Counted from the stretch's first letter, positions 1 through 13,319 are shown. The stretch is DNA of 64,000 bases from a bacterium (GCA_035485275.1 DATHOE010000034.1:93677-157676), one strand, 5' to 3'. The notes: generated by a model from the letters alone, not told the origin. Numbers and translations are program-made.

Positions 1-1122
1 CCGGTGGTGCGTTCCACCACGCACGGCTCCGAGGCCTGGTCCGAGGAGGCCGACGCGGAGTTCCAGTGGAGCGTGCCGCCCGACGCCTCCAAGATCGCCG
101 GCTACTACTGGCTGGTGGACCAGGCGCCCGCGACCGTGCCCGGCCCCCCGGCCGCGGCCGGGGGCAGCCGCTACAGCACGAGCCCGGCGGCCTCGGTGAA
201 GGGCCTGGCGGACGGCGTCTGGTGGTTCCACGTGGCGGCCATGGACCGCGCCGGGAACGCGGGCGTCCAGGCCGGCCATTACTGCGTGCGTGTCACCCAC
301 GGCCCGCCGCCGCCGCCATTGAGCTCGCCCACCCATCCGCGGCCGGAGGAGGGCTACGCCAACCGCACGGCCGTGTTCCATTGGTCCACGCCCCAGTCCC
401 GCACGCCCGTCTCCGCCTGGCACTACTGCCTGGACCAGATCCCGGACACGGTGCCCGACCAGCGCGCCGCGCGCACCACCGAGCTGCGCGCGGAATTCAA
501 CGATCTGGCCGCGGGCGACTGGTGGTTCCACATCGTCAGCGTTGGTCCCGACGGCGGCCTGGGCCGCCTCGCCTCGCACTTCCCGGCGCGCGTGCGTAGC
601 GCCGGCTCCCTGCAGGGCCAGGTGACCAAGCCCAACGGCATGCTGCCCCAGGAGGGCGCGCTGCTGGAGGTCTTCCGCCAGGGGAAAAGCGTGGCCAAGA
701 CCGCCGCGGGCAAGGACGGGCGCTTCCGTTTCGACGGCCTGGATCCGGGCGAGGTCCTGGTGAAGCTGGACTTGGCGGGCCTGCCTTCGCTCCTGGTCGA
801 CGGCGTCAAGCTCGACGGCGCCTCCTCCACCCTGAACCTGAGCTGCGAATGCATGGCCTGGCCCTCGCCCACCGAAGGGGCGGCCCAGATCCGCTTCGCG
901 GTGCTGGCCAGGGAGCCGGGCAAGGTGGGCCTGAAGCTGTACACCGAGACCGGGCAGGGCCTGGGGGAGATGGAGGCCGCCGCCCCCCGCGCGGGCTACG
1001 TGAAGCTGACCTGGAACTGCTCCGAGGCCCCCGCCGGGAGCCTGCTGTGGCAGGCCACGGTGACGTCCGCGGACGGCAAAGCCGTCAAATTTCCCATCCG
1101 CAAGCTCAGGATCAGCCGCTGA
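1..1122 (+). CDS. 5'-truncated secreted/surface repeat protein (tandem repeats ending in WWFH motif, carboxypeptidase-regulatory-like beta-sandwich segment, C-terminal sorting-like domain)
   Basis: Frame of ORF 4..1122 is open to the window edge, so the N-terminus lies upstream. Two ~110-aa repeats each contain ...DGVWWFHVAAMDRAGN / ...AGDWWFHIVSVGPDGG. Segment GQVTKPNGMLPQEGALLEVF...DGRFRFDGLDPGEV resembles a CarboxypepD_reg fold. Confidence 0.55.
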   Translation, partial: PVVRSTTHGSEAWSEEADAEFQWSVPPDASKIAGYYWLVDQAPATVPGPPAAAGGSRYSTSPAASVKGLADGVWWFHVAAMDRAGNAGVQAGHYCVRVTHGPPPPPLSSPTHPRPEEGYANRTAVFHWSTPQSRTPVSAWHYCLDQIPDTVPDQRAARTTELRAEFNDLAAGDWWFHIVSVGPDGGLGRLASHFPARVRSAGSLQGQVTKPNGMLPQEGALLEVFRQGKSVAKTAAGKDGRFRFDGLDPGEVLVKLDLAGLPSLLVDGVKLDGASSTLNLSCECMAWPSPTEGAAQIRFAVLAREPGKVGLKLYTETGQGLGEMEAAAPRAGYVKLTWNCSEAPAGSLLWQATVTSADGKAVKFPIRKLRISR

Positions 1123-1151
1123 TTTGGGCATCCCAGGCGGGGCGCGATGCG

Positions 1152-1159
1152 TATATAAT
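1152..1159 (+). promoter_or_regulatory. candidate -10 element (TATATAAT) upstream of trxA
   Basis: TATAAT-containing octamer about 60 nt upstream of the trxA ATG, with GGAGGAAG ribosome-binding site just before the start; no convincing -35. Confidence 0.3.
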
Positions 1160-1219
1160 CTGCGGACGGTAAAAAGGTTCATAGGGGCCGCTTTCGTGGC
1201 CCCGCACAGCGGAGGAAGT

Positions 1220-1546
1220 ATGGGAAAGGCGATGACCATCACGCAAGCGAACTTCAAAACCGAGGTTCTTGATTCCAAGCAGCCTGTCTTGATCGATTTT
1301 TGGGCCGAGTGGTGCGGGCCCTGCCGCATGGTGGGCCCCATGGTCGAGGAACTGGCCGGGGAATACGCGGGCAAGGCCAAGGTGGGCAAGATCGACGTGG
1401 ACCACGAGCAGGACCTGGCCCAGAATTTCTCGGTGAGCTCGATCCCGACCCTGCTGGTCATCAAGGGCGGCAAGGTCGTGGGCAGCCGGGTCGGCGTCGG
1501 CAGCAAGGCCGACCTGTCCAAGATGCTGGATGAGGCTTTGCGCTGA
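1220..1546 (+). CDS. trxA: thioredoxin
   Basis: WCGPC active site within VLIDFWAEWCGPCRMVGP; 108 aa; RBS GGAGGAAG precedes ATG at 1220 (ORF 1124 upstream extension has no homology). Confidence 0.9.
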   Translation: MGKAMTITQANFKTEVLDSKQPVLIDFWAEWCGPCRMVGPMVEELAGEYAGKAKVGKIDVDHEQDLAQNFSVSSIPTLLVIKGGKVVGSRVGVGSKADLSKMLDEALR

Positions 1547-1560
1547 ACGAAGCGTCTTTT

Positions 1561-2283
1561 TTGGTGACGGGCGCCACTTCCGTGCTGGGAAGGGCGCTTT
1601 TGCGCCGGCTCTGGGCGGACCCCGCCTGGGCCGGCTTTGTTTTTTACCTGGTGGGGAGGGATGGCTCCGCGCTGGAGGCCCTGTGCCTGGAGGCCGGGGC
1701 CGCCGGACGCGGGGCCGAGGCCCTGGCGCTGGACCTGGCCGAGCCCTCCGCCGGGGAAGCCTGCGCCCGCGCCCTGGCCGCGGCCCCTCCGCTGGGAGGC
1801 TTCGTGTTCGCGGCCGGAAGCGCCCAGGACCAGGTCCTGCCGCTGATGGCCGAAGCCGCCTTTGAGCGGGTGCTCAGGGTGAACCTGGGCTTCCACGCCG
1901 GACTGCTGAAATTTTTCCGCGGACCCGGCCGCCTGGCCCCCGGCGCCCGCGGCCTGCTGGTTGGGTCCAACTCCGGCTTGCGCGGCCAAAAAGGCCAGGG
2001 CGCCTATGCCGCGGCCAAGGGAGGCCTGGTGGACCTGCTGGCCCTGGCCCCCCCCGGCCTGAGGATCAACGTGCTCCTGCCGCCCCTGATGCCCTCGCCC
2101 TTCCTGGACGCGCTCAAGCCCGCGGCCCGCGCGGAACTCTACGGGGCGCGCCTCATGGAGGACCCCGACCCGGCGGCCTCCTGCGCCGAGGCGGCGCTCT
2201 TCCTCCTGTCCGACCGCGCTTCCTACATACACCGCCAGGTCATCCACGCCGACAGCCGCGTGGGCGCCCTGGGCTGGGACTGA
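1561..2283 (+). CDS. SDR-family oxidoreductase (FabG-like ketoreductase)
   Basis: Rossmann N-terminus VTGATSVLGRAL, catalytic YxxxK in GAYAAAKGG, about 240 aa; TTG/GTG start 14 nt after trxA stop. Confidence 0.75.
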   Translation: MVTGATSVLGRALLRRLWADPAWAGFVFYLVGRDGSALEALCLEAGAAGRGAEALALDLAEPSAGEACARALAAAPPLGGFVFAAGSAQDQVLPLMAEAAFERVLRVNLGFHAGLLKFFRGPGRLAPGARGLLVGSNSGLRGQKGQGAYAAAKGGLVDLLALAPPGLRINVLLPPLMPSPFLDALKPAARAELYGARLMEDPDPAASCAEAALFLLSDRASYIHRQVIHADSRVGALGWD

Positions 2284-2289
2284 GGCGGC

Positions 2290-3408
2290 ATGCCCGTGCG
2301 CGTTTTCATCACGGCGCTGGGGCGCGTCAGCGCCCCCTTGGACGGCTCCGGGCTGGCCCCGGACCCGCGCCTGCAGGGCCGTTTGAGCGCGCGCCTGGAT
2401 GTGGAGGCCCGCCCGGGCGAACCCCGTTTGCACGCCCTGGCCCGCCTGGCGGCGGAAGCGGCCCTGGAAGGGGCTCCGGGGATCGGGCGCCTGGCCGCGG
2501 AGGAGAAGGGCGTTTTCCTGTCCTCCAGCAAAGGGGGCATGGAGATCTTCGATACGGCCCATCCGGACCCGGGCCCAGCCCTGTGGCGTTTTTTGAGCTC
2601 CAGCCCCGGCCAGGCGGTGCGCGACGCGCTGGGCTGGCGCGGCGGCGGGCGCAACAGCCCCCTGGCCTGCGCCACCGGCGCCTACGCCATCGGGCTGGCC
2701 TTTGAGGACATCCGCGCCGGGCGCCTGAGCGCGGCCCTGGCCGGCGCGGCCGAGGCCTCCTTGACCCCCTTGGTGGCGGCTTCCTTCGCCAGGCTGGGCG
2801 CGCTGTCCCCGGCGCGGGATCCGGCCGGCCTGCGCGGCCCCTTCGACCGCCGGCGTTCGGGCTTCGTGCTGGGCGAGGCCGGGGCGGCCCTGCTGCTGGA
2901 AAGCGAGGCAAGCCTGGCCCGCACGGGGCATAGGCCCCTGGCGGAGTTCAAGGGATGGGCCTGCACCTGCGACGCCTGGCACCTGACCTCGCCCCTGCCC
3001 TCGGGCCGCCAGGCCGCCCGTTGCATGCGCCTGGCCCTGGAGCGCGCGGGCCTGGCCCCCAGCGACATCGCCTACGTCAACGCCCACGGCAGCGGCACCC
3101 CGGCCGGCGACCTGGCCGAAGCCGCGGCCCTGCGCCAGGTCTTCGACGCCGCATCCGGTCCGAGGCTCAGCTCCATCAAGGGGGCCACGGGCCACACCTT
3201 GGGGGCTTCGGGCGCCCTGGAAGCCCTGGTCACGGTGCGGTCCCTGGAGCGCGGGACGCTGCCCGCGAACAGCTTTTGCCGCGACCCCATGCCCGAGCTG
3301 GCGCCCTGGCTGGCCCTGGAAGCCGAGGCCCTGCGCCCGGGCTCCGCGCTGTCCCTGAGCATGGGCTTCGGCGGGCACAATGTGGCGCTGGTCTTTTCCC
3401 GCGCCTGA
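2290..3408 (+). CDS. beta-ketoacyl-[ACP] synthase, elongating FabF/FabB-like (compact, 372 aa)
   Basis: Cys-His-His triad contexts PLACATGAYAIG, NAHGSGTPAGD, GATGHTLGASGALEA; C-terminal GFGGHNVALVF. Confidence 0.85.
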   Translation: MPVRVFITALGRVSAPLDGSGLAPDPRLQGRLSARLDVEARPGEPRLHALARLAAEAALEGAPGIGRLAAEEKGVFLSSSKGGMEIFDTAHPDPGPALWRFLSSSPGQAVRDALGWRGGGRNSPLACATGAYAIGLAFEDIRAGRLSAALAGAAEASLTPLVAASFARLGALSPARDPAGLRGPFDRRRSGFVLGEAGAALLLESEASLARTGHRPLAEFKGWACTCDAWHLTSPLPSGRQAARCMRLALERAGLAPSDIAYVNAHGSGTPAGDLAEAAALRQVFDAASGPRLSSIKGATGHTLGASGALEALVTVRSLERGTLPANSFCRDPMPELAPWLALEAEALRPGSALSLSMGFGGHNVALVFSRA

Positions 3409-3421
3409 AGCGGAGCTTGCG

Positions 3422-4588
3422 ATGTCCTGGACCGAAGAACTCGAGCTCGACCTTGAGGAGACCCAGTCCAAGGGGCTGCGCCGCAGCCTGCGCGTGTGCG
3501 CGCATCCTGAGGGCCCGCGCATCCGCCTCGATGGAAGGGAACTGGTCCAGTTCGCCAGCAACAACTACCTCGGCCTCAGCGCGCATCCCCAGGTCCTCGC
3601 CGCGGCCAAGGCGGCCCTGGACGAATACGGGGCCGGCGCCGGCGCATCGCGCCTGGTGGGCGGCGGCAGCCTGATGATCCACGCCGCGCTGGAGCGCGAA
3701 TTGGCGCGCTTCAAGGGCATGCCCTCCGCGCTCGTCTTCGCCACCGGCTCCTTGGCCAACCTCGGCCTGCTGGGGACCCTGGCCGGGCCCGAGGATGTCG
3801 TGGTCCTGGACAAGGCCTGCCACGCCACGCTCTACGACGGCGCCCGCCTGTCCGGGGCCGGGCTGGCGCGTTTTCCGCACCAGGACCTGGCCCGTTTGGA
3901 CGCCCTGCTGGCCGAAAAAAGCAAGGGGGCCCGGCGGACCATCGTGGTCGTGGAGGGCGTCTATTCCATGGACGGGGACATCGCGCCCCTGCCCGAGCTC
4001 CTGGAGCTTACGGCGCGCCACCGGGCCCTGCTGGTCGTGGACGAGGCCCATTCCACGGGGGTGCTGGGCGCTGGCGGCCACGGCATCCTGGAGCACTACG
4101 GCTTGGCCGCCCCCGAAAACCTGATCCTGAGCGGCACGCTGAGCAAAGCCCTCGGGAGCCTGGGGGGCTATGTGGCCGGGCCCCAGGTCCTGGTCGACAC
4201 CCTGGTCAACCACAGCCGCGCCTTCATCTACGCCACCGCCTTGCCGGCCTCCTGCGCCGCGGCCGCGCTGGAGGCCCTGCGCCTGATCGAGAAGGAGCCC
4301 GGGCACCTGCAGCGGCTGCGTGTCGTGCGCAAGGCCTTGGCCGAGGGTTTGACGGGCTTGGGCTGGGACTTCGGCCGTTCCCAGAGCCCCATACTCCCCA
4401 TTTTGGTGGGCAGGGCCGCGGCCGCGCTGGCCCTGGAACAAAGGCTTTTGGGGCAGGGATTTTATGTGCCGGCCATGCGGCCGCCGACCGTGCCCGCGGC
4501 CGCCTGCCGCCTGCGCCTGAGCGTGGGCGCCGCCCACGACCTGGGGCAGGTCGAGGCCTTGCTGGCCGTCCTGGGGAAAAAACCATGA
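3422..4588 (+). CDS. bioF: 8-amino-7-oxononanoate synthase-like alpha-oxoamine synthase (BioF-like)
   Basis: PLP-dependent AOS motifs NNYLGL, VDEAHSTGVLG, PLP-lysine in GTLSKALGSLGGYVAG; ATG at 3422 is residue 15 of ORF 3380; adjacent to bioD. Confidence 0.75.
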   Translation: MSWTEELELDLEETQSKGLRRSLRVCAHPEGPRIRLDGRELVQFASNNYLGLSAHPQVLAAAKAALDEYGAGAGASRLVGGGSLMIHAALERELARFKGMPSALVFATGSLANLGLLGTLAGPEDVVVLDKACHATLYDGARLSGAGLARFPHQDLARLDALLAEKSKGARRTIVVVEGVYSMDGDIAPLPELLELTARHRALLVVDEAHSTGVLGAGGHGILEHYGLAAPENLILSGTLSKALGSLGGYVAGPQVLVDTLVNHSRAFIYATALPASCAAAALEALRLIEKEPGHLQRLRVVRKALAEGLTGLGWDFGRSQSPILPILVGRAAAALALEQRLLGQGFYVPAMRPPTVPAAACRLRLSVGAAHDLGQVEALLAVLGKKP

Positions 4589-5208
4589 GCCCGGCAGCGC
4601 TGGCCTCCCTGGTCCGGGGCCCCGGTTATTTCGTCACGGGGACGGACACGGGCGTGGGCAAGACCTGGGTGGCCTGCCGTCTGGCGGAAACGGCGAGGGC
4701 GCGCGGGCTGCGTGTGGGCGTGTTGAAGCCCGCGGAGAGCGGCGGAGGCGGCGACGCGGCGGCCCTGAAAAAAGCGTCGTCCTGCCCGCTGCCCCTGGAG
4801 CTCATCCGGCCCTACGCCTTCGGCGCGGCGCTGGCCCCCTCGGCCGCGGCGGCGCTGGAGGGGAGGCGGGTCGCGCTCAAGCCCATCCTGAAGGCCTACA
4901 GGGCCGTGGAGGGCGTCTCGGATTTCACGCTGGTGGAGGGCGCGGGGGGGCTGCTGGTGCCCTACGGACCCGGTCTCGACGGCGCCTCCATTGCCAAGGC
5001 CATGGGCCTGCCCCTGCTCATCGTGGCGCGGCGGGGGCTGGGGACCATCAACCACAGCCTGCTGACTTTGGAGGCCGCGCGCGCGCGGGGCCTGAATGTG
5101 GCGGCGCTGGTGCTCAGCGCCCCGGGCCGCAAGGGCGATAGGTCCGTGGCCGGCAACGCGCGGCAGATCGCGCGTTTGGGCAAGGTGCGGGTGGTGGAAG
5201 CGGGATGA
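4585..5208 (+). CDS. bioD: dethiobiotin synthetase
   Basis: P-loop YFVTGTDTGVGKT, LKPAESG, LVEGAGG, TINH motifs; start overlaps bioF stop (ATGA). Confidence 0.85.
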   Translation: MSPAALASLVRGPGYFVTGTDTGVGKTWVACRLAETARARGLRVGVLKPAESGGGGDAAALKKASSCPLPLELIRPYAFGAALAPSAAAALEGRRVALKPILKAYRAVEGVSDFTLVEGAGGLLVPYGPGLDGASIAKAMGLPLLIVARRGLGTINHSLLTLEAARARGLNVAALVLSAPGRKGDRSVAGNARQIARLGKVRVVEAG

Positions 5209-5222
5209 ACAAAGGGACCATC

Positions 5223-5250
5223 GGCCGCCCTTAGGGGCGGCCCTTTTTAT
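5223..5250 (+). terminator. rho-independent terminator after bioD
   Basis: Perfect 8-bp inverted repeat GGCCGCCC-TTAG-GGGCGGCC followed by CTTTTTAT, between convergent bioD and uppP. Confidence 0.7.
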
Positions 5251-5266
5251 TCGCGCAGGGTCCGCT

Positions 5267-6070
5267 TCAGGACTGGAAGAAAAACCACAGCAGCGGGCTC
5301 AGGGCCAGGCGGTACCAACCGAAGGGTTTGAACGAAATCCTGGACAGCAGGCGCATGAACTGGCTGACGCTGAGCAGGGCCAGCACAAAGGCCGTGGCGA
5401 AGGCCAGGCCGAAGGCGAGAGGGAAGGCCCGCACCGCCTCGGACTTGTGGAGCTCCAGCAGGGAGGCGGCCAGGAGCACGGGCACTCCCGCCAAAAAGGA
5501 GAATTCCGCGGCCGTTTTGCGGTTCAGGCCCAGGAGCAGGGCGCCGATGATGGTGGCGCCGGAGCGCGAGACGCCCGGCCACAGCGCCAGGCACTGGAAG
5601 AGGCCCACGCCCAGAGCCTGAAGCAGGGTCACGGCGTCGACGCTGGCGCTGGTGACCACTTTCGGACGGAATTCCACGCCCAGGATGGCGGCCCCGCCCA
5701 GGGCCAGGCCGGCCACGGAGGGCAGCGGCCCCAGCATCTGGCTGTAGAAGTATTTTTTGAAGAGCAGGCCGCAGACCAGCACCGGGACGGTGACCAGGGC
5801 CATCAGCTGCCAGGCCCGCGCGCCCTGGAAGCCCGTCCCCTGGTCCAGGCCGGTGCGGCCGGGGCGGAAGAGGGCCTCGAAACGGTTCCAGTACAGGAAC
5901 AGCACGGCCAGGGCCGGCGCGCCCTGCAGGGCCACCCCGAAACTCCGGGTTAGCTCCGGATTGTCCTTGAGCAGGCTCCCCAGGATGATGATATGGGCGT
6001 TGGCGCTCACCGGAAGGAATTCCGTGACGCCTTCAGTGAGTCCGAACAAGAGTGCGTGGAGGATGTTCAT
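5267..6070 (-). CDS. uppP: undecaprenyl-diphosphatase (BacA/UppP)
   Basis: MNILHALLFGLTEGVTEFLPVSANAHIIILGSLL and polytopic membrane profile; ATG at 6070 (residue 37 of ORF 5267..6178; upstream extension non-homologous). Confidence 0.85.
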   Translation of the reverse strand: MNILHALLFGLTEGVTEFLPVSANAHIIILGSLLKDNPELTRSFGVALQGAPALAVLFLYWNRFEALFRPGRTGLDQGTGFQGARAWQLMALVTVPVLVCGLLFKKYFYSQMLGPLPSVAGLALGGAAILGVEFRPKVVTSASVDAVTLLQALGVGLFQCLALWPGVSRSGATIIGALLLGLNRKTAAEFSFLAGVPVLLAASLLELHKSEAVRAFPLAFGLAFATAFVLALLSVSQFMRLLSRISFKPFGWYRLALSPLLWFFFQS

Positions 6071-6226
6071 GCCGCGGCTCCAGGGGAGGTAATAATCGAA
6101 GGAGCTTACACGGAGCCGCCCTGGGAAGGAAAGCCAAACCGGGGTAAATTTCCCCAGGGGGCCGGGCCGCTTAGGCAAGTTTTTTTGTATAAAAGGCTTG
6201 GTTTAAAAGGCCATATTTTTTTAGTT

Positions 6227-6260
6227 TGTGCATTTATTCACAAGGCAATCTGTGTATAAT
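6227..6260 (+). promoter_or_regulatory. candidate act operon promoter: CRP/FNR-family-like palindrome TGTGC-N6-TCACA (6227..6242) plus -10 TATAAT (6255..6260)
   Basis: Read directly: tgtgcatttattcaca matches CRP consensus TGTGA-N6-TCACA with one mismatch; TATAAT 12 nt downstream; sits in the most AT-rich stretch of the window, about 105 nt upstream of actA ATG. Confidence 0.45.
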
Positions 6261-6365
6261 CGTTGGGTTTTCAGGAATCATCGGCCCGGGCCATGAAGGT
6301 CCGGACCAGGAACGGCGTCCCGCTGTCCAAAGCCGGGACGAACTTCGCACTTAGGCAGACCGCAC

Positions 6366-6965
6366 ATGCCTGTGAATAGCCCGCGCCTGACGGCGTTTTT
6401 GATGATCCTCATCTTGGCCGCCCTGTGCCTGTTCCTCACCCCCTTTGTCCAGACCCCGGGGCGTAACAACGGCTACTCACCCCAACAGCCCATAGCTTTT
6501 TCGCACCGCCTGCACGCGGGAATGCTGCAGATCAACTGCCAGTACTGCCACTTCACGGCCGAACGCGGCCCCCACGCCGGTTTCCCGGCCGTGGCCACCT
6601 GCCTGAACTGCCACCGTTTCGTCAAGGGAAGCACCCCCTTCAACCAGGGCGAGATCCAGAAGCTCTACAAGTACGCGGGCCTGGACGCCGACGGGAACCC
6701 CGATCCCAAAGGCAATCCGCAGCCCATCCCCTGGGTCAAGATCCACGTGCTCCCGGCCTTTGTGCGTTTCGACCACAGCCGCCACATCACCCAGGGCGTG
6801 ACCTGCCAGACCTGCCACGGGCCCATCCAGACCATGGACCAGGTGACCCAATATTCGTCGCTGGCGATGGGCTTCTGCGTCAATTGCCACAGGGACGTCG
6901 ACGCCAACGGCCTGCACGGCAAGAAGGTACACGCGTCCCTCGACTGCGCGGTCTGCCACTACTAG
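6366..6965 (+). CDS. actA: Alternative Complex III subunit ActA (membrane-anchored pentaheme cytochrome c)
   Basis: N-terminal TM helix; five CxxCH motifs (CQYCH, CLNCH, CQTCH, CVNCH, CAVCH); first gene of act cluster. Confidence 0.85.
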   Translation: MPVNSPRLTAFLMILILAALCLFLTPFVQTPGRNNGYSPQQPIAFSHRLHAGMLQINCQYCHFTAERGPHAGFPAVATCLNCHRFVKGSTPFNQGEIQKLYKYAGLDADGNPDPKGNPQPIPWVKIHVLPAFVRFDHSRHITQGVTCQTCHGPIQTMDQVTQYSSLAMGFCVNCHRDVDANGLHGKKVHASLDCAVCHY

Positions 6966-6976
6966 AGACTCCAACC

Positions 6977-9900
6977 ATGCCCGATACAAAAAAAACCTAC
7001 TACAAGTCCCAGGCCGAGCGCGAGGCGCTGCTGGATCCGTCCCTGCCGATGCCGGCGCAGATGCAGGAATCCGGCGTCATGGAGGAGAGCCTGGCGGGCG
7101 GGCTGGCCGGGCTCCTGGAGCAGTCCAACGAGCTGCGCATGGACCGGGCCGCCTTCCTCAAGCTGACGGGCTTCAGCTTCGCGGCCGCGGCCCTGGCCGG
7201 CTGCGGCAAGGCCGCTGAAAAGGCCCTGCCCTACCTGGTCCAGCCCGAGGAGGCCATCCCCGGCGTCCCGGTCTTCTACGCGTCGGTCTGCGGCGGCTGC
7301 TCGGCCGGCTGCGGCGTGCTGGCCAAGGACCGCGACGGGCGGCCCATCAAGCTGGAAGGAAACCCCAAGCACCCCCTCAACCACGGCGCCCTCTGCGGCA
7401 TGGGCCAGGCCTCGGTGCTGGGCCTCTACGACACGCACCGGCTGAAGGTCCCGCAGATCGGCGGCCAGGACACGGACTGGGCCTCCCTGGACGCGGCCGT
7501 CATGGGCGCCCTGAAGGACCTGCGCGCCAAGCGCGGCAAACTGCGCATCCTCAGCCGCAGCCTCATCAGCCCAGCCCTGAACGCCCAGATCGCGTCCTTC
7601 GTGGCCGCCCACCCGGGCGCCAAGCACGTGGTCTACGACCCCCTGTCCGCCTCGGCCATCCTCGACGCCCACCAGGAGACCCACGGCCGCCGGGTCCTGC
7701 CCCACTACCGCTTCGATCAGGCCGAGGTGATCGTCGGCTTTGACGCGGACTTCCTGGGCACCTGGATTTCGCCCGTGGAATTCGCCGGCGCCTACCAGAG
7801 CGGCCGCAAACTGCGCGGGCACGAGGGCCGCTTCTCCAAGCATTTCCAGGTCGAATCCGGGCTCACCGTGACGGGCAGCAAGGCCGACGAGCGGGCCACG
7901 GTGCGGCCCAGCGAGATGACCCTGGCTTTGGCCCACCTGGCCGTGAAGCTGGGCGCGCCCTCGGACTGGACCGGCAGGGGGGCCAACCCCATCGGCGCGG
8001 TCAATGCCGTGGACTCCGGCCGCCTGGACGCCATGGCCAAGGCCCTCAAGGCCGCGGGTTCCAAGGGCCTGGTGGTCTGCGGATCCCAGGATCTCAAGGC
8101 CCAGCTGATCACGAACTGGATCAACCACCGCCTGGGCGCCTACGGCACCACGCTGGACGTCAAGCGCCCCTCGCTGCAGCGCCAGGGCGACGACCTGGCC
8201 GTGGCCGCCCTGATCGAGGAGATGGGCAAGGGCCAGGTGCAGGGCCTCATCGTGCTCGACGGCGATCCCGTGGCGGAACTGCCCCAGGGGCAGGCCTTCG
8301 CCGACGGGATGAAGAAGGTCCCCTTCACGGTCAGCCTGGCATTGGCGGACGACGACACCGCCTCGCTGTGCGGCTTCCGCGCGCCGGACAACCATTGGCT
8401 GGAATCCTGGTCCGACGCCGAACCCATCGCGGGCATGGTGGGCCTGGCCCAGCCGGCCATACGGCCCTTGTACAAGACCCGGCAGGCGCTGGAAAGCCTG
8501 GCCGCCTGGCAGGGGAAGGACGGCCTGGCCCTCGACCTGCTGAAGGCCTTCTGGAAGTCCCACGTGTTCCCGGCGGCGGGCAAGGGCCTCTTCTTCGACG
8601 CCTTCTGGGACAGCACGCTTCAGGCCGGCTTTGTGGACAAGGCCGGCGACGCGCAGGGCGCCTCCGGGGATTTCCGCGAGCCGAAGATCGGCGGCCTGAA
8701 GGCCTCCTCCGACGGCATGGAAGTCGCCTTCTACCCCAAGATCGCCCTCCAGGACGGCCGCCACGCGGTCAATCCCTGGATCCAGGAGCTGCCCGACCCG
8801 ATCAACAAGATCTCCTGGGACCAGACCGTCGCGGTGAACGCGGACACGGCCAAGAACCTGGGCCTGGAGGAGGGCGACACGGTCCGCCTCAGCGCGCAGG
8901 GCACGGGCACGGTCCTGGAGCTGCCGGTGCACGTGCAGCCCGGGCAGGATCCGCGCACCTTCAGCGTGCCCATGGGATACGGCCGCGCCGGCACCGAGCG
9001 CTTCCACGACATCGGCCCGCGCTGGCTCCTGAACGTGCCCGTGGTGGACAAGGGCCAGCGCCTGGGCGTGAACGTGGCCGCCCTGGCCGACCCCTCCGAC
9101 GGCCGGCCCAAGTGGCACCGCTCCGGCGCCTCCGTCTCCAAGACCGGCGACAACGTCATGCTGGCCTGCACCCAGATCCACCAGACCCTCGACCTCCCGG
9201 CCTACATGGTCCCCCAGGCCGGCCCGCGCGTGCCGGCCGTCCAGGAGATGACCCTGGAGGAGTTCCGCAAGGGCGCCGAGGCCGAGCGCATGGATCCCGC
9301 GGGCAGCCTTTACAAGGACAGGGAATTCACCGGCCGCCGCTGGGCCATGGCGGTGGACCTGACCGCCTGCAACGGCTGCTCCGCCTGCGTGATCGCCTGC
9401 CAGATCGAGAACAACGTCCCGGTGGTGGGCCGCGAAGAGGTGCGCCGCGCCCACGAAATGCACTGGATACGCATCGACCGCTACTACCACGACGGCCCGG
9501 ACGGGCTGGAGACCATCAGCCAGCCCATGATGTGCCAGCAGTGCGGGCACGCCCCCTGCGAGCCGGTCTGCCCGGTGGCCGCGACCACGACCAACGCCGA
9601 AGGGATTAACCAGCAGGTGTACAACCGGTGCGTTGGCACGCGCTATTGCGCCAACAACTGCCCCTACAAGGTGCGGCGCTTCAACTGGTTCGACTATCCC
9701 GCCGTGTCCGGCTCCGAGACCTTGACCCTGAACCCGGACGTCACGGTGCGTTCGCGCGGCGTGATGGAGAAGTGCAACTTCTGCGTCCAGCGCGTGCAGG
9801 AGCAGAAGGCGGAGGCCAAGCGCGCCGGCCGCGGGGACGCCATGGACGACGGCGAGATCAAGACCGCCTGCCAGCAGACCTGCCCGGCCCAGGCCATCAC

Positions 9901-10033
9901 CTTCGGCGACATCAACGATCCCAAGAGCGCGGTCTCCCTGCTGGCCGGCGACGTGCGGGCCTTCAAGGTGCTGGAGGACCTCAACACCCGGCCCGCGGTG
10001 AGCTACCTGGCCCAAGTCCGAAACAAGAGCTGA
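6977..10033 (+). CDS. actB: Alternative Complex III subunit ActB (molybdopterin-oxidoreductase-like domain fused to 4-cluster FeS domain)
   Basis: About 1019 aa; C-terminal Cys clusters CNGCSACVIAC, CQQCGHAPCEPVCP, CVGTRYCANNCP, CNFCVQRV; Tat-like segment DRAAFLKL followed by LAGC. Start taken at first ATG (6977); true start uncertain. Confidence 0.85.
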   Translation: MPDTKKTYYKSQAEREALLDPSLPMPAQMQESGVMEESLAGGLAGLLEQSNELRMDRAAFLKLTGFSFAAAALAGCGKAAEKALPYLVQPEEAIPGVPVFYASVCGGCSAGCGVLAKDRDGRPIKLEGNPKHPLNHGALCGMGQASVLGLYDTHRLKVPQIGGQDTDWASLDAAVMGALKDLRAKRGKLRILSRSLISPALNAQIASFVAAHPGAKHVVYDPLSASAILDAHQETHGRRVLPHYRFDQAEVIVGFDADFLGTWISPVEFAGAYQSGRKLRGHEGRFSKHFQVESGLTVTGSKADERATVRPSEMTLALAHLAVKLGAPSDWTGRGANPIGAVNAVDSGRLDAMAKALKAAGSKGLVVCGSQDLKAQLITNWINHRLGAYGTTLDVKRPSLQRQGDDLAVAALIEEMGKGQVQGLIVLDGDPVAELPQGQAFADGMKKVPFTVSLALADDDTASLCGFRAPDNHWLESWSDAEPIAGMVGLAQPAIRPLYKTRQALESLAAWQGKDGLALDLLKAFWKSHVFPAAGKGLFFDAFWDSTLQAGFVDKAGDAQGASGDFREPKIGGLKASSDGMEVAFYPKIALQDGRHAVNPWIQELPDPINKISWDQTVAVNADTAKNLGLEEGDTVRLSAQGTGTVLELPVHVQPGQDPRTFSVPMGYGRAGTERFHDIGPRWLLNVPVVDKGQRLGVNVAALADPSDGRPKWHRSGASVSKTGDNVMLACTQIHQTLDLPAYMVPQAGPRVPAVQEMTLEEFRKGAEAERMDPAGSLYKDREFTGRRWAMAVDLTACNGCSACVIACQIENNVPVVGREEVRRAHEMHWIRIDRYYHDGPDGLETISQPMMCQQCGHAPCEPVCPVAATTTNAEGINQQVYNRCVGTRYCANNCPYKVRRFNWFDYPAVSGSETLTLNPDVTVRSRGVMEKCNFCVQRVQEQKAEAKRAGRGDAMDDGEIKTACQQTCPAQAITFGDINDPKSAVSLLAGDVRAFKVLEDLNTRPAVSYLAQVRNKS

Positions 10034-10036
10034 GGA

Positions 10037-11485
10037 ATGAAACCCATGCAATCTAGCGCAGCGGCCGTGGACGTGGATCCGGCCGATCAATCCTGGGTGG
10101 AGGGGAACAAGACCCTCGGCCAAGTCACCAAGGACATCGGCGACCACCTCGACGGCAAGCCCGGCGAGTGGTGGTGGATCGGGTTCGGCATCTCGCTCCT
10201 GGCCCTGGGCCTGGGCGGCTTCTGCATCGTCTACCTCATGTTCACGGGCATCGGCTGTTTCGGCCTGAACAAGACCATCGGCTGGGCCTTTGAGATCACC
10301 AACTTCGTGTTCTGGGTGGGTATCGGCCACGCCGGCACGCTGATCAGCGCCATCCTCTACCTGCTGCGGCAGCGCTGGCGGACCGCGGTGAACCGTTCCG
10401 CCGAGGCCATGACGCTCATCGCGGTCATGTGCGCGGGCCTGTTCCCGCTCATGCACATGGGCCGGCCCTGGTTCTTCTTCTACCTGGCCCCCTACCCCAA
10501 CACCCGCGGCTCCCTGTGGATGAACTTCCGCTCGCCGCTGGTCTGGGACATGCTCGCCATCTCCACCTACTTCACGGTCTCGCTGGTCTTCTGGTACCTG
10601 GGCCTGATCCCCGACCTGGCCACGCTGCGCGACCGGGCCAAGGGCGTGAAGAAGTTCATCTACGGCATCTTCAGCTTCGGCTGGGACGGCTCCAGCCGGA
10701 CCTGGAAGCACTACGAGCTGGTCTACCTGATCCTGGCCGGCCTGGCCACGCCCCTGGTGCTGTCCGTGCACTCGGTGGTGAGCTCGGACTTCGCCACCTC
10801 GCTGATCCCGGGCTGGCACACCACCATCTTCCCGCCCTACTTCGTGGCCGGCGCCATCTTCTCCGGCTTCGCCATGGTCCTGACCCTCATGCTGGTCGCC
10901 CGCAAGACCATGCACTTCGAGGAGTACATCACCCTGCGCCACATCGAGGCCATGACCAAGGTGATGCTCCTGACCTCCATGATCGTGGGCCTGGCCTACA
11001 TGACAGAGTTCTTCATCGCCTGGTACTCCGGCGACCGCTACGAGCAGCAGCACTTCCTGGTCCGCTTCCTGGGCCCATACGGCTGGTGGGCCTTCATCAT
11101 GTACGGCTGCAACATGGTCATCCCCCAGGTGCTCTGGTTCAAGGCGGTCCGGCGCAACCTGCTCCTGGTCTTCATCATCACGCTCAGCACGAACGTGGGC
11201 ATGTGGTTCGAGCGCTGGGTGATCATCGTCAGCTCCCTGCAGACGGACTTCCTGCCCTCCAGCTGGGAGCACTACCACCCCACGCCCTTCGACTACGGCG
11301 TCACGCTGGGCAGCTTCGGGCTCTTCTTCACCGTGTTCCTGCTCTTCGCGCGCTTCCTGCCCATGATCGCCATCGCGGAGATCAAGCACGAGGTCGCCCA
11401 CGGCGGCGCCCCCCACGGCGAGCATGAGGCCCACGGGGCCCACGCCGCAGCCGCGCTGCCGCGCGCCGAAGCGGAGGCCGTATGA
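10037..11485 (+). CDS. actC: Alternative Complex III subunit ActC (NrfD/PsrC-like quinol-interacting membrane subunit)
   Basis: Polytopic membrane protein with NrfD-like helices (FEITNFVFWVGIGHAGTLISAILYL...); ATG 3 nt after actB stop. Confidence 0.8.
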   Translation: MKPMQSSAAAVDVDPADQSWVEGNKTLGQVTKDIGDHLDGKPGEWWWIGFGISLLALGLGGFCIVYLMFTGIGCFGLNKTIGWAFEITNFVFWVGIGHAGTLISAILYLLRQRWRTAVNRSAEAMTLIAVMCAGLFPLMHMGRPWFFFYLAPYPNTRGSLWMNFRSPLVWDMLAISTYFTVSLVFWYLGLIPDLATLRDRAKGVKKFIYGIFSFGWDGSSRTWKHYELVYLILAGLATPLVLSVHSVVSSDFATSLIPGWHTTIFPPYFVAGAIFSGFAMVLTLMLVARKTMHFEEYITLRHIEAMTKVMLLTSMIVGLAYMTEFFIAWYSGDRYEQQHFLVRFLGPYGWWAFIMYGCNMVIPQVLWFKAVRRNLLLVFIITLSTNVGMWFERWVIIVSSLQTDFLPSSWEHYHPTPFDYGVTLGSFGLFFTVFLLFARFLPMIAIAEIKHEVAHGGAPHGEHEAHGAHAAAALPRAEAEAV

Positions 11486-12012
11486 CGCGCCGTTTCGTGG
11501 TCGGCTACTTCGAGGCGGACTCCGCGGCGATCAAGGCCGTCAAGGCCCTGCGCGCGGAAGGCTGGCAGATCTACGACGTCTTCACGCCCTACCCCGTGCC
11601 GGGCATGGACGAGGCCATGGACCTGCCCCATTCCTTCCTGGGCTGGGTGGCCTTCATCAACGGCATGGGCGGGGCCCTGGGCATGCTGGCCCTGGCGCTC
11701 TTCGTGTCCGTGATCGCCTGGCCGCTGAACGTCGGCGGCCGCCCCGACGCGTCCATACCCGCCTTCTTCCCGCCGGTCTTCGAGGCGGGGGTCCTGAGCG
11801 CGGGGGTGACCGTGGTCCTGGCCCTGTTCTGGGTCTGCGACCTCTGGCCGGGGAAGACCGCCAAGCTGGACCTGCCCCGCAGCACGGACGACCGTTTCGC
11901 GGTGGTGCTGGACGCCGACCAGTCCCCCCACGCGGGCGACAGGATCATCGGCGCGCTGAAAGCCCAAGGCGCGGTCGAAGTGGGTGAACAATCCGTCCGG
12001 GAGGCGCTGTGA
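11482..12012 (+). CDS. actD: Alternative Complex III subunit ActD (DUF3341-like)
   Basis: MTRRFVVGYFEADSAAIKAVKALRAEGWQIYDVFTPYPV N-terminus and two C-terminal TM helices; start overlaps actC stop. Confidence 0.75.
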   Translation: MTRRFVVGYFEADSAAIKAVKALRAEGWQIYDVFTPYPVPGMDEAMDLPHSFLGWVAFINGMGGALGMLALALFVSVIAWPLNVGGRPDASIPAFFPPVFEAGVLSAGVTVVLALFWVCDLWPGKTAKLDLPRSTDDRFAVVLDADQSPHAGDRIIGALKAQGAVEVGEQSVREAL

Positions 12013-13319
12013 ACAAGTGGGGCTTCCTGAACATACTCTTGGCGGGCGCTCTGGCTTTCGTGCTGCTGCTGCTGGCGGCCATGCACACCAACCCCAACAA
12101 GCGCAACCATTACTGGCTCCAGGGCATGGACGAGAGCCCGGCGCCGGCGGACTTCTCGGACAACCCCAATTTCGCCAACGGCCAGACCCTGCAGATGCCC
12201 CCGGACGGGACCCTGGCGCAGGGGGAGCAGCGCTATCCCTACGCCGGCGGCATGGACGAAGCCATCCGCGCGGGCAAGGCCCTCAAGAACCCCCTCGACC
12301 CCAACGACCCGCAGGTCCTGCTGAGGGGCAAGATCCTGTTCGAGCGCAACTGCATGCCCTGCCACGGCGTGGCCGGGCGCGGGGACGGCCTGGTCACGGC
12401 CGCCCGCCGCGCGGGCGGCTTCCCGCCGCCCCCCAGCCTGCTGGCGGCCCACGCCAAGGGGCTTCCGGACGGCTACATCTACAACTACATCTCCCGCGGC
12501 GGCATCCTGATGCCCTCCTACGGTGCCCAGATCAACCCCCAGGAGCGCTGGAAGGTGGTCTCCTGGGTCCGGCACATGCAGAAGAGCTTCCCCGAGGCCC
12601 TGCCCGCCACGGGCACGGCGCAGGCCAACGACGAGGCGGGACTGGTGCCCTCCACGACCCCCGGCTTTGACTACGACGGCCAGCCTCCGGTCGACGAGAT
12701 CGAGGCCAACGAGGCCCTGCAGCAGGCCACCATCGAGAACCGGGGCGAAGCCTCGGAGACCGACATGCCCCCGGCCATGGTGGCAGCGGCGGCGGCCGCC
12801 GCCGCGGCGTCAGCCGGGGCCGGAGGGGGCACCCCCTGGCAGCAGGCCCTCGTGGTCATCAACAAGAACGACTGCTTCACCTGCCACAACCCGGACCACA
12901 AGGTCATCGGGCCGGCCTTCAAGGACGTGGCCAAGCGCTACTACAGCCGGCAGCCCGGCATCATCCCGATCCTGGTGGCGAAGGTCAAAGCGGGAGGCGC
13001 GGGCAACTGGGGCCAGGTGCCCATGGCGGCGCACCCCAACACCTCGGACGCGGACCTGACGACCATCGTGAAGGGCATCCTTTATCTGGCCGACCCCAAG
13101 GGCAAGGGGACCAGCTCCATGGCCCCGAGCATGAAGCGGGTCATGGAACTGGTCCATTCCGGGGCGCCCATCCACTGCCCCGCCCTGGGCGCCGAAGCCA
13201 TCAACGGCCCGGCCTTCCTGACCGAGCGCGAGCCCCTGCAGGCCGAAGTGCGGCGCGTCAGCGGCCCGGACCTGGCCGCCCTGGGCCCAGGATCCGTTGA
13301 CCAGGAGACGAAACCATGA
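12009..13319 (+). CDS. actE: Alternative Complex III subunit ActE, extended diheme form (two c-type cytochrome domains joined by a poly-Ala linker)
   Basis: N-terminal TM helix; CMPCH with downstream ILMPSYG (Met ligand); poly-Ala linker AMVAAAAAAAAASAGAGGG; second domain CFTCHNPDHKVIGPAFKDVAKRYY...WGQVPMAAHPN; GTG start overlapping actD stop. Confidence 0.75.
   Translation: MNKWGFLNILLAGALAFVLLLLAAMHTNPNKRNHYWLQGMDESPAPADFSDNPNFANGQTLQMPPDGTLAQGEQRYPYAGGMDEAIRAGKALKNPLDPNDPQVLLRGKILFERNCMPCHGVAGRGDGLVTAARRAGGFPPPPSLLAAHAKGLPDGYIYNYISRGGILMPSYGAQINPQERWKVVSWVRHMQKSFPEALPATGTAQANDEAGLVPSTTPGFDYDGQPPVDEIEANEALQQATIENRGEASETDMPPAMVAAAAAAAAASAGAGGGTPWQQALVVINKNDCFTCHNPDHKVIGPAFKDVAKRYYSRQPGIIPILVAKVKAGGAGNWGQVPMAAHPNTSDADLTTIVKGILYLADPKGKGTSSMAPSMKRVMELVHSGAPIHCPALGAEAINGPAFLTEREPLQAEVRRVSGPDLAALGPGSVDQETKP

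Follow-up and report, generated by a model that had tools for sequence, protein, structure and literature searches.

Positions 1561-5208 of the window, which is the whole 64,000-nucleotide stretch of bacterial DNA that was analysed, carry four genes on the plus strand: a divergent, 3-ketoacyl reductase-like SDR (1561-2283, 240 aa; Pfam adh_short, adh_short_C2, and KR), a FabF-type elongating ketosynthase or KAS (2290-3408, 372 aa; ketoacyl-synt N and C domains, PF00109 and PF02801), the 8-amino-7-oxononanoate synthase BioF (3422-4588), and the dethiobiotin synthetase BioD (4585-5208). The family models agree with the four ORFs that the preliminary description had placed here, and its intergenic gaps are confirmed by the sequence, with 6 nt between SDR and KAS, 13 nt between KAS and bioF, and -4 nt between bioF and bioD, where the bioD start overlaps the bioF stop as ATGA. 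These gaps leave no room for a dedicated ACP between the operon genes, and no AcpP-like ORF was found in the window. The operon is closed by an intrinsic-terminator-like hairpin on the plus strand (5223-5242; eight G-C pairs with a T run behind them), placed between bioD and uppP, which converge. At the other end, a thioredoxin gene (1220-1546, plus strand; TIGR01068, 124.5 bits, cut-off 96.8) probably opens the transcript, and it also lies 5' of the module in the window's relatives L081-L086 and L092 and in a further relative, the P0058 contig. Its co-transcription with the module can only be inferred, since a weak terminator-like hairpin (1535-1553) overlaps its 3' end. The family of the SDR and its place upstream of the KAS are as first described, but its translation probably begins before 1561, at a CTG (1543) that shares bases with the stop codon of the thioredoxin gene. 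By Pfam, the rest of the window encodes alternative complex III, Tat, and polysaccharide genes.

The two downstream genes are assigned to biotin synthesis. The bioF ORF opens at 3380, and the ATG at 3422, preceded by GGAG 8 nt upstream, matches residue 1 of E. coli BioF, to which the product is 37.6% identical over residues 1-380; the PLP-lysine motif GTLSKALG is present in the translation. The score against the BioF model TIGR00858 (414.9 bits) lies 11.5 bits under the cut-off of 426.45, yet this is the top alpha-oxoamine synthase model, exceeding the BioF/Kbl subfamily model (340) by about 75 bits, KBL by 90, and serine palmitoyltransferase (321) by 94. A serine palmitoyltransferase, which would have undone the biotin reading of the preliminary description, was therefore rejected, also because translation of the gene is coupled to that of an unambiguous BioD (TIGR00347, 147.5 bits, cut-off 83.3; P-loop GTDTGVGKT). 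The small shortfall of BioF would also suit a cluster that makes a biotin-related antimetabolite or some other amino-ketone, in which the alpha-oxoamine synthase would take a non-pimeloyl acyl-ACP from the KAS and the reductase, and Streptomyces clusters for biotin-pathway antibiotics are reported to reuse bio-like genes (PMC13336041). Nevertheless, such a product is very improbable, since BioD is a clear equivalog, the module adjoins the whole late pathway (BioA, BioD, and BioB) in other lineages, and it occurs once per contig examined, among housekeeping neighbours (thioredoxin, uppP, and the respiratory complex) and with no resistance or export genes.

The KAS is of the elongating type with a full Cys-His-His triad, as initially proposed. 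The residues are C127, H266, and H302, accompanied by K297 and F360 (FabF K335 and F400), and all of them are invariant in the family. The AF2 model (pLDDT 89.7) has the FabF fold with a TM of about 0.9, its best structural matches are FabF proteins, and the register is the same in HMMER alignments to FabFs of solved structure. These features, together with the FabF-type domains, led to the rejection of BioZ, a FabH-like enzyme with a Cys-His-Asn triad, as its identity. Relative to FabF, the protein lacks some 40 residues, with a remodelled N-terminal half, a shortened 116-135 loop, and Gly198 replaced by Val or Ile, and it scores 233.2 bits against the FabF model TIGR03150, in an alignment limited to residues 115-369, where the cut-off is 493.75. 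Housekeeping fab clusters have the order plsX-fabH-fabD-fabG-acpP-fabF, and the KAS is not part of such a cluster, as no AcpP, FabD, or FabH homologue lies within the 64 kb. Housekeeping FabF was rejected on the low score and on the separate, Lys-marked clade, recurring beside bio genes of several unrelated lineages, to which the KAS belongs.

This mark is K81, which stands at the FabF Ile108 back-gate position, and F166 is the retained equivalent of FabF Phe202. The I108-to-K change is found in 23 of 23 family members, in which G107 is likewise invariably replaced by Ser, and the pair S80-K81 (FabF 107-108) is invariant in all 43 members of the Lys-type clade, whereas position 108 is I, V, L, or M in 141 of the 164 other FabF-like KASs fetched. 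In FabF of E. coli, a hydrophobic gate through which long acyl chains can move is made of I108 and F202 near C7-C8 of the bound chain, I108F limits elongation to the C6-to-C8 step, and the methyl ester of glutaryl-ACP reaches exactly the depth of this gate (PMC9006962). The lysine may pair with a free distal carboxylate and shut the pocket to longer chains; the pocket geometry around K81 is not fixed by the AF2 model, because the loop that follows it (residues 82-101) has a pLDDT below 50.

The SDR is similarly distant from its housekeeping counterpart. Its top NCBIfam match is FabG NF004200, at 76 bits for a cut-off of 273, and it reaches 66.5 bits against FabG TIGR01830, for which the cut-off is 297.75; housekeeping FabG was rejected on these scores. 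As with the KAS, the fold and catalytic residues are those of the housekeeping enzyme while the scores do not reach half of the curated cut-offs: FabG S138, Y151, and K155 are aligned with the Ser of GSNSG and the YxxxK motif YAAAK. The absence of housekeeping fabF/fabG orthology, on which the preliminary description had made its proposal depend, thus holds for both enzymes. Moreover, the SDR ends in ADSRV where FabG has xDGGM, and the C-terminal Arg is common to the window SDR and the bio-cluster SDRs of L043, L171, L172, and L174. The partner SDRs read [DE][SG]R[IV], compared with xGG in 58 generic FabGs, with Arg where the FabGs have Gly.

The phylogenetic placement that had been suggested for the KAS sets it apart from generic FabFs. 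The Lys-type KASs, a clade delimited in this analysis and not a curated family, form one clade with a bootstrap of 93/100 in a neighbour-joining tree of 68 sequences and 395 columns (distance method only), and six further Lys-type KASs likewise stay below every NCBIfam cut-off. Their genomic contexts are those of biotin synthesis: SDR-KAS-BioF-BioD-BioA in L043 (an FCPU426 MAG), BioB-SDR-KAS-BioF-BioD in L171, SDR-KAS-BioF-BioA-x-BioD in L172, SDR-KAS-BioF-BioA-BioD in L174, and BioB-KAS, with overlapping genes, in L173; the Lys-type KAS of L175 has no bio neighbours. A bio-cluster location is therefore seen in five of the six independent Lys-type contexts outside the window's lineage, whereas a bio-like gene of any kind lies at most 5 kb away in one of 122 generic FabF loci (Fisher p = 1.4e-7). 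The Lys-type KAS adjoins late biotin genes also in the relatives of the window (L081-L086, L091, and L092).

Within the window's lineage, unrelated genes (those for thioredoxin and a giant fn3 surface protein) share in the synteny as well, so simple inheritance accounts for part of the linkage between KAS and bio genes there. This observation could also favour an SDR-KAS pair unrelated to biotin, which would make or alter another short acyl product (a lipid, a signal, or a secondary metabolite) and stand beside bioF-bioD through inherited gene order. The P0058 contig, where trx-SDR-KAS is kept and PhyH and a hypothetical gene replace bioF-bioD, and L175 are consistent with it. However, in four or five other lineages, with otherwise unrelated neighbours, the KAS clade, usually with an SDR, occurs inside bio clusters, generic FabF loci are almost never found in such clusters, and the bioB overlap in L173 and the small distances to bioF speak for units of co-translation, which makes a function outside biotin synthesis improbable.

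Genes of the remaining biotin and fatty-acid pathways are missing from the vicinity. Searches by tblastn with the E. coli proteins detected no BioA, BioB, BioC, BioH, AcpP, FabD, FabH, FabZ, or FabI in the 64 kb, apart from a 40-bit generic methyltransferase match in the polysaccharide cluster, so that the lack of bioA, bioB, bioC, and bioH reported earlier stands. Homologues of bioC, bioH, fabZ, and fabI are likewise lacking in the clusters of L043 and L171-L174, and no FabZ homologue was found in the window, L043, or L171-L175. The absence of bioC and bioH covers 64 kb only, and the KAS and SDR could serve biotin through a methyl-ester, BioC-like route, in which a carboxyl methyltransferase encoded elsewhere would cap malonyl-ACP and an esterase would uncap pimeloyl-ACP methyl ester, the dedicated KAS and reductase being needed because the housekeeping enzymes of the lineage refuse methyl esters. 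Candidates for these activities lie in some clusters: an LCM-family carboxyl methyltransferase (PF04072, 166 bits) directly 3' of bioA in L043, an Rce1-like/CPBP hydrolase-family membrane protein directly 3' of bioD in L171 and L172, and a PF00144 serine-hydrolase-family gene inserted between KAS and bioF in L086. Nevertheless, no accessory gene is common to all the clusters and the window has none, an invariant Lys at the base of the acyl pocket is a better match for a free carboxylate than for a methyl ester, and Desulfovibrio, the only tested precedent, has no bioC or bioH; the methyl-ester route is therefore unlikely, although less so than a role outside biotin synthesis.

The recurrence of the KAS and SDR in the biotin clusters of several uncultured lineages indicates that the seven-carbon pimelate arm is most likely their product. 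The dedicated pimelate-arm module envisaged in the preliminary description is supported by comparative, sequence-based evidence, namely the clade of its own and the bio linkage, and SDR-KAS-bioF-bioD, together with trx, is probably a dedicated front end for biotin synthesis that elongates an omega-carboxy acyl-ACP to pimeloyl-ACP. In this pathway, the KAS would condense an omega-carboxy acyl thioester with malonyl-ACP; glutaryl-ACP is the most plausible acyl substrate, and malonyl-ACP may be another in a first round. The SDR would reduce 3-ketopimeloyl-ACP, plus 3-ketoglutaryl-ACP if there were two rounds. The carrier protein, dehydration, and enoyl reduction would be provided by housekeeping FAS II (AcpP, FabZ, and FabI), and the route would be independent of methyl esters. 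BioF would then convert pimeloyl-ACP and L-alanine into KAPA, BioA, encoded elsewhere, would form DAPA, BioD would produce dethiobiotin, and BioB, also encoded elsewhere, would complete biotin.

The arrangement had been described as non-canonical, a view that leaves out Desulfovibrio, which has FAS-like genes within its bio cluster (PMC545781, PMC10102598). The extended cluster DVU2558-DVU2565 comprises the FabZ-like DVU2560 and DORF42491, the KR DVU2561, the ACP DVU2562, and the KAS DVU2563, in addition to the nitroreductase-like DVU1220 (PMC545781, PMC10102598). The DVU2560-2563 route was proposed in 2004, received genetic support in 2023, and is known from genetic evidence only (PMC545781, PMC10102598); the KR, ACP, KAS, and FabZ-like genes of the D. 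vulgaris bio cluster are needed for growth without biotin, in an organism that has no bioC or bioH (PMC10102598). This cluster is the closest precedent, likened to the window by gene content and description; a profile search and a plasmid search gave generic FabFs only. Both have the KAS and KR among bio genes and no bioC or bioH (in the window, within 64 kb), the Desulfovibrio pair being a FabF-annotated KAS and a 3-oxoacyl-ACP reductase among bioF/A/D/B, and in both the KR precedes the KAS, an order taken from locus tags in Desulfovibrio. Unlike it, the window cluster has no dedicated ACP, FabZ-like, or nitroreductase-like gene, bioA and bioB do not adjoin it, and the host is an uncultured bacterium that carries alternative complex III and is not a Desulfobacterota or Chrysiogenetes anaerobe.

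Other systems share individual features with the proposed pathway. BioZ of alpha-proteobacteria is also a dedicated condensing enzyme of the bio cluster, which replaces BioC and BioH; it joins glutaryl-CoA, a C5 dicarboxyl thioester, to malonyl-ACP, and housekeeping FAS II finishes the free-carboxyl 3-ketopimeloyl-ACP (PMC7645780). However, BioZ is a FabH-like KAS III, whereas the window KAS is FabF-type, with Cys-His-His and a reductase of its own, and no CaiB-like supplier of glutaryl-CoA lies nearby. The BioC-BioH route of E. coli, as in the present proposal, uses FAS-type elongation, with two rounds in E. coli, to reach a C7 omega-carboxy acyl-ACP used by BioF, but it combines a dedicated methyltransferase and esterase with housekeeping FabB/FabF and FabG, and the window shows the reverse, with a dedicated KAS and KR. 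In cispentacin synthesis by AmcF-AmcG, a FabF-type KS extends a C5 dicarboxylate starter, 2-oxoglutaryl-ACP, by a single malonyl unit, with FabD and FabI borrowed (PMC10698177). AmcF is a short FabF-type KS (model length 369) like the window KAS; nevertheless, the window has no CLF-like partner, adenylating enzyme, or dedicated ACP, its context is biotin and not a cyclopentane amino acid, and the AmcF model NF058662 gives 179-225 bits with the window KAS and other Lys-type KASs, all under the cut-off of 325.

If the KAS and SDR do build the pimelate arm, a two-enzyme, methyl-ester-independent route to pimeloyl-ACP may extend across several uncultured phyla, respiratory organisms included, and not only sulfate-reducing anaerobes. 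We propose tentatively, as a reading somewhat less secure than the biotin role itself, that a KAS with a carboxylate-binding Lys and an SDR with a matching C-terminal Arg could represent the minimal core of the Desulfovibrio-type pathway, for which the ACP, dehydratase, and enoyl reductase would be borrowed from fatty-acid synthesis.

The window module comprises a ketoreductase (KR)-like SDR of 240 amino acids (1561–2283; Pfam adh_short, adh_short_C2, and KR), a FabF-type ketoacyl synthase (KAS) of 372 amino acids (2290–3408; both ketoacyl-synt domains), BioF (3422–4588), and BioD (4585–5208; TIGR00347, 147.5 bits against a cut-off of 83.3). All four open reading frames lie as placed by the preliminary description, with its gaps of 6 and 13 nt and a 4-nt ATGA overlap. 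The alpha-oxoamine synthase, for which an affiliation with serine palmitoyltransferases (SPT) had been considered, has as its best model the BioF TIGR00858 (414.9 bits, cut-off 426.45), followed by the BioF/Kbl subfamily (340.5 bits), KBL (325 bits), and SPT (321 bits); this ranking, together with the coupling to BioD, led to the rejection of SPT and KBL and supports an assignment as BioF. A hairpin of 8 G–C pairs with a T run lies 3' of bioD (5223–5242), a sigma-70 promoter scan of positions 900–6400 returned no site, and upstream of the thioredoxin gene (trx) or the SDR neither the window nor any of six related loci showed a BirA-operator-like palindrome. The reported absence of bioA, bioB, bioC, and bioH from the 64 kb was borne out by tblastn with the E. 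coli proteins, and AcpP, FabD, FabH, FabZ, and FabI of E. coli as queries found no homologue there either, the lone exception in these searches being a 40-bit generic methyltransferase match inside the polysaccharide cluster.

The trx gene (1220–1546) lies upstream of the SDR, and no ATG, GTG, or TTG precedes the Rossmann beta1-TGxxxG motif of the SDR in the window (1534–1566); the annotated start, TTG 1561, would place the N-terminus at 'VTGATS'. A CTG codon at 1543, in frame with the SDR, shares bases with the trx stop codon (TGA, 1544–1546) to form CTGA, and the same junction occurs in the 58%-identical relative L081 (9157–9160; region 9145–9185), where the gene caller set the SDR start much too late. 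These junctions suggest that the SDR starts by CTG initiation or by termination–reinitiation coupled to trx.

Within the lineage of the window, the order giant surface protein–trx–SDR–KAS–BioF–BioD is held down to approximately 50% KAS identity (L081–L085 and L092). The surface protein, of approximately 2155 amino acids with fn3/Big domains, has its C-terminus at 4–1122 of the window and extends upstream, as seen in the relatives L081 and L084; together with an UPF0164/Toluene_X outer-membrane-type protein, it is syntenic with the trx–bio module lineage-wide. Since unrelated genes thus take part in it, lineage-internal synteny alone is weak evidence, and the argument for a biotin role is carried by recurrence across lineages. 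The genes downstream of the module comprise uppP in convergent orientation, an operon for alternative complex III, tatAC, and an extended stretch devoted to polysaccharide synthesis. The complex III-like operon, which is complete (6366–14482, followed by tatA/tatC), encodes a cytochrome c7-type ActA, a molybdopterin/FeS ActB, an NrfD-like ActC, ActD, a cytochrome c ActE, and ActF, and such an operon is likewise located 3' of the bio module in L081. The polysaccharide/O-antigen-type region (15500–62800, approximately 47 kb) encodes many GT4/GT2 glycosyltransferases, two Wzx-like flippases, Wzy, Wza/Wzc-like export proteins, a carbamoyltransferase, and acyltransferases. Its G+C content is 0.50–0.65 (minimum 0.50 at 46–48 kb) versus 0.70 in the first 14 kb, and no gene was called at 45.8–48.7 kb using the GC3 filter.

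Against the FabF equivalog, with its cut-off of 493.75 bits, the KAS scores 233 bits in an alignment that covers just its C-terminal two thirds, and the SDR scores 76 bits against the 273-bit cut-off of the FabG model that fits it best. A search of 5.8 billion proteins delimited a discrete KAS family (P0001–P0058) of 362–405 amino acids and 47–99% identity, below which a score gap (276 to 215 bits) leads into ordinary FabFs of 410–420 amino acids. These scores, the separate clade, and the gene context rule out that the KAS and SDR are the housekeeping FabF and FabG, which the preliminary description had named, along with a canonical bioC/bioH pathway elsewhere, as counting against a dedicated function. 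BioZ was also rejected as an identity for this enzyme, being of the wrong KAS class. Residues C127, H266, H302, K297, T270, and F360, equivalent to C163, H303, H340, K335, T307, and F400 of FabF, are kept family-wide, in agreement with the full Cys–His–His triad (C127, H266, H302) described earlier, and F166 (FabF F202) is likewise kept. Every family member carries Lys (K81 in the window) in place of FabF Ile108 and Ser in place of Gly107; in addition, Gly198 is replaced by Val or Ile and the loop equivalent to FabF 116–135 is shortened, and the register is the same when HMMER aligns the KAS with the Synechocystis and S. aureus FabFs of solved structure. The AlphaFold model of the KAS (pLDDT 89.7, pTM 0.91), for which Foldseek retrieved FabF structures at a TM of ~0.9 and 31% identity, confirms the predicted FabF fold. 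Its sole low-confidence stretch, residues 82–101 right after K81, takes the place of the FabF 109–135 region lining the acyl pocket and may become ordered only upon dimerization or substrate binding.

In an alignment of 164 sequences, consisting of the FabF-like KASs of loci fetched by similarity plus references, the FabF 108 column holds I, V, L, or M in 141, and Lys there is confined to the window family and L043, a locus outside the window's lineage that was the one useful result of a genome-contig scan with the single window KAS, which otherwise gave generic FabFs of at most 46% identity. With the L043 KAS as a query, another large family came up along with numerous diverse proteins 366–433 amino acids in length, all with '[ST]SK' at the 108 site. 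In a neighbor-joining tree (68 sequences, 395 columns, 100 bootstraps), all 43 Lys-type KASs form one clade (support 93), Ser–Lys is invariant among them (43/43), and the window family branches deeply within the clade (support 100). Six diverse Lys-type KASs reached no NCBIfam cut-off and, therefore, the group is not curated. A profile from 26 diverse Lys-type KASs turned generic, matching mostly housekeeping FabFs and surfacing no Desulfovibrio proteins; the top 150 matches of a 43-sequence clade profile against protein representatives were all giant multi-KS polyketide synthases; and tblastn against PLSDB plasmids with a Lys-type KAS gave only generic FabFs (at most 39% identity). Two family members were among the matches listed in a metagenome-contig scan with the family alignment, the others being generic FabFs, which served as the control set for the comparison of bio linkage.

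Outside the window's lineage, six Lys-type KAS contexts were available, L043 and five others (L171–L175) picked solely on how long the surrounding sequence was, and five of the six are in bio clusters. In L043, a candidate division FCPU426 MAG, the SDR (8992–9711), KAS (9713–10891), BioF, BioD, and BioA are consecutive; the orders in the others are BioB–SDR–KAS–BioF–BioD (L171), SDR–KAS–BioF–BioA–hypothetical–BioD (L172), BioB–KAS (L173), and SDR–KAS–BioF–BioA–BioD (L174). The sole exception, L175, has a Lys-type KAS (7767–9248 region) without bio genes; its neighborhood is planctomycete-like, with PSCyt2/PSD1/DUF1501 genes, and a 73-aa ORF with no Pfam match precedes the KAS. By comparison, among the 122 generic FabF loci flanked by at least 3 kb, only 1 has a bio-like gene within 5 kb (Fisher p = 1.4e-7). 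The SDR–KAS pair could instead have a non-biotin function and adjoin bio genes by coincidence, as L175 would allow, and also the contig of the most distant family member (P0058, JGI 3300047160), which retains the giant protein, trx, SDR, and KAS and has a PhyH-family dioxygenase and a 185-aa protein in place of bioF–bioD; however, the arrangement recurs across lineages, which makes such a coincidence quite improbable. Similarly, production of a biotin-like antimetabolite by the operon is unlikely, as the module is contiguous with complete late pathways in other lineages and the surroundings in the window are housekeeping.

The partner SDRs of the window, L043, L171, L172, and L174 are only 21–38% identical pairwise and share a C-terminal '[DE][SG]R[IV]' motif with Arg (ADSRV, LDSRI, FESRV, LDSRI, and LDGRV, respectively), at the site where 58 FabG-like genes of generic loci have 'xGG'. 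The dedicated pimelate-arm module put forward in the preliminary description is supported by comparative evidence: the clade, the Lys/Arg signatures, and the bio-cluster linkage. The window, L043, and L171–L175 clusters lack homologues of bioC, bioH, fabZ, fabI, and acpP, a Pfam scan found no hidden ACP or dehydratase among the unannotated neighbors in related clusters, and identity of the module with the BioC–BioH scheme was rejected.

In the proposed mechanism, the KAS would load an omega-carboxy acyl group and condense it with malonyl-ACP, Lys81 would pair with the free carboxylate, and the SDR would reduce the 3-keto product, each cycle being finished by housekeeping FabZ, FabI, and AcpP. 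Glutaryl would be the best geometric fit as substrate, malonyl being possible for a first round. In E. coli FabF, I108 and F202 gate the pocket at about C7–C8 of the bound acyl chain, the I108F mutation leaves C6 to C8 as the main elongation, and the glutaryl-ACP methyl ester on the active-site cysteine corresponds to a C7 acid in length and, hence, reaches the gate (PMC9006962); because of this depth, Lys81 would sit where the distal carboxylate of the glutaryl-enzyme intermediate lies. BioF would then consume pimeloyl-ACP, followed by BioA and BioD, with bioA and bioB presumably encoded elsewhere. The borrowed steps have precedents in BioZ, which converts glutaryl-CoA into 3-ketopimeloyl-ACP, completed by FAS II (PMC7645780), and in AmcF–AmcG, a FabF-type KS for which 2-oxoglutaryl-ACP is the substrate and which depends on borrowed FabD and FabI (PMC10698177). 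From the sequences we infer these substrates, a role for the Lys and the Arg, and independence from methyl esters. Alternatively, the dedicated KAS and KR enzymes could serve a methyl-ester route, to which several accessory genes might belong: an LCM-family carboxyl methyltransferase directly 3' of bioA in L043 (14823–15680; PF04072, 166 bits), Rce1-like/CPBP membrane proteins directly 3' of bioD in the mutually unrelated clusters L171 (11097–11819) and L172 (13296–14147), and a serine-hydrolase-family insert, a 526-aa PF00144 (beta-lactamase/esterase family) gene between KAS and bioF in L086 (2712–4292), a relative from the window's own lineage. The methyltransferase and the Rce1-like proteins could be a methylation/de-esterification pair for the pimelate carboxyl, or unrelated. 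However, these genes are not universal among the clusters and the predicted buried Lys favors a free carboxylate, so that a methyl-ester route seems rather doubtful.

Within bacterial biotin synthesis, the least settled question is how the pimelate arm is made, and the known solutions, namely BioC–BioH with its esterase variants, BioI, BioW, BioZ, and the recently named BioE–BioL module, leave many genomes unexplained. The described system closest to the window module is found in Desulfovibrio, whose extended bio cluster has DVU2561 (KR), DVU2562 (ACP), DVU2563 (KAS), and two FabZ-like genes flanked by bioB/A/F/D. Since bioC/H/G/W are missing there, a 2004 study predicted that this cluster represents a new pimeloyl route (PMC545781). 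RB-TnSeq in 2023 showed that this cluster and a nitroreductase-like gene are needed for growth without biotin, and its authors considered the pathway probably limited to a few anaerobe phyla, with its biochemistry still undefined (PMC10102598). The idea of FAS-like genes inside bio clusters is not new, having been in the literature since 2004, and a literature search found no other account of such a KAS/KR pair within bio clusters. As judged from the published cluster description, both systems have the KR-then-KAS order adjoining bio genes, whereas the window module lacks the ACP, dehydratases, and nitroreductase and belongs to a different, respiratory-looking organism with alternative complex III. 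The window module may be a reduced variant of a known, biochemically unsolved kind of FAS-like bio cluster, and its distribution suggests a smaller KAS and KR core occurring well beyond a few anaerobic phyla. Ser–Lys at FabF 107–108 and Arg at the SDR C-terminus provide a concrete, testable sequence signature that could help to annotate biotin prototrophy in MAGs and steer mutagenesis and in-vitro work on ketosynthase handling of a free omega-carboxylate and, together with the minimal gene set, make the question of the pimelate route directly testable.
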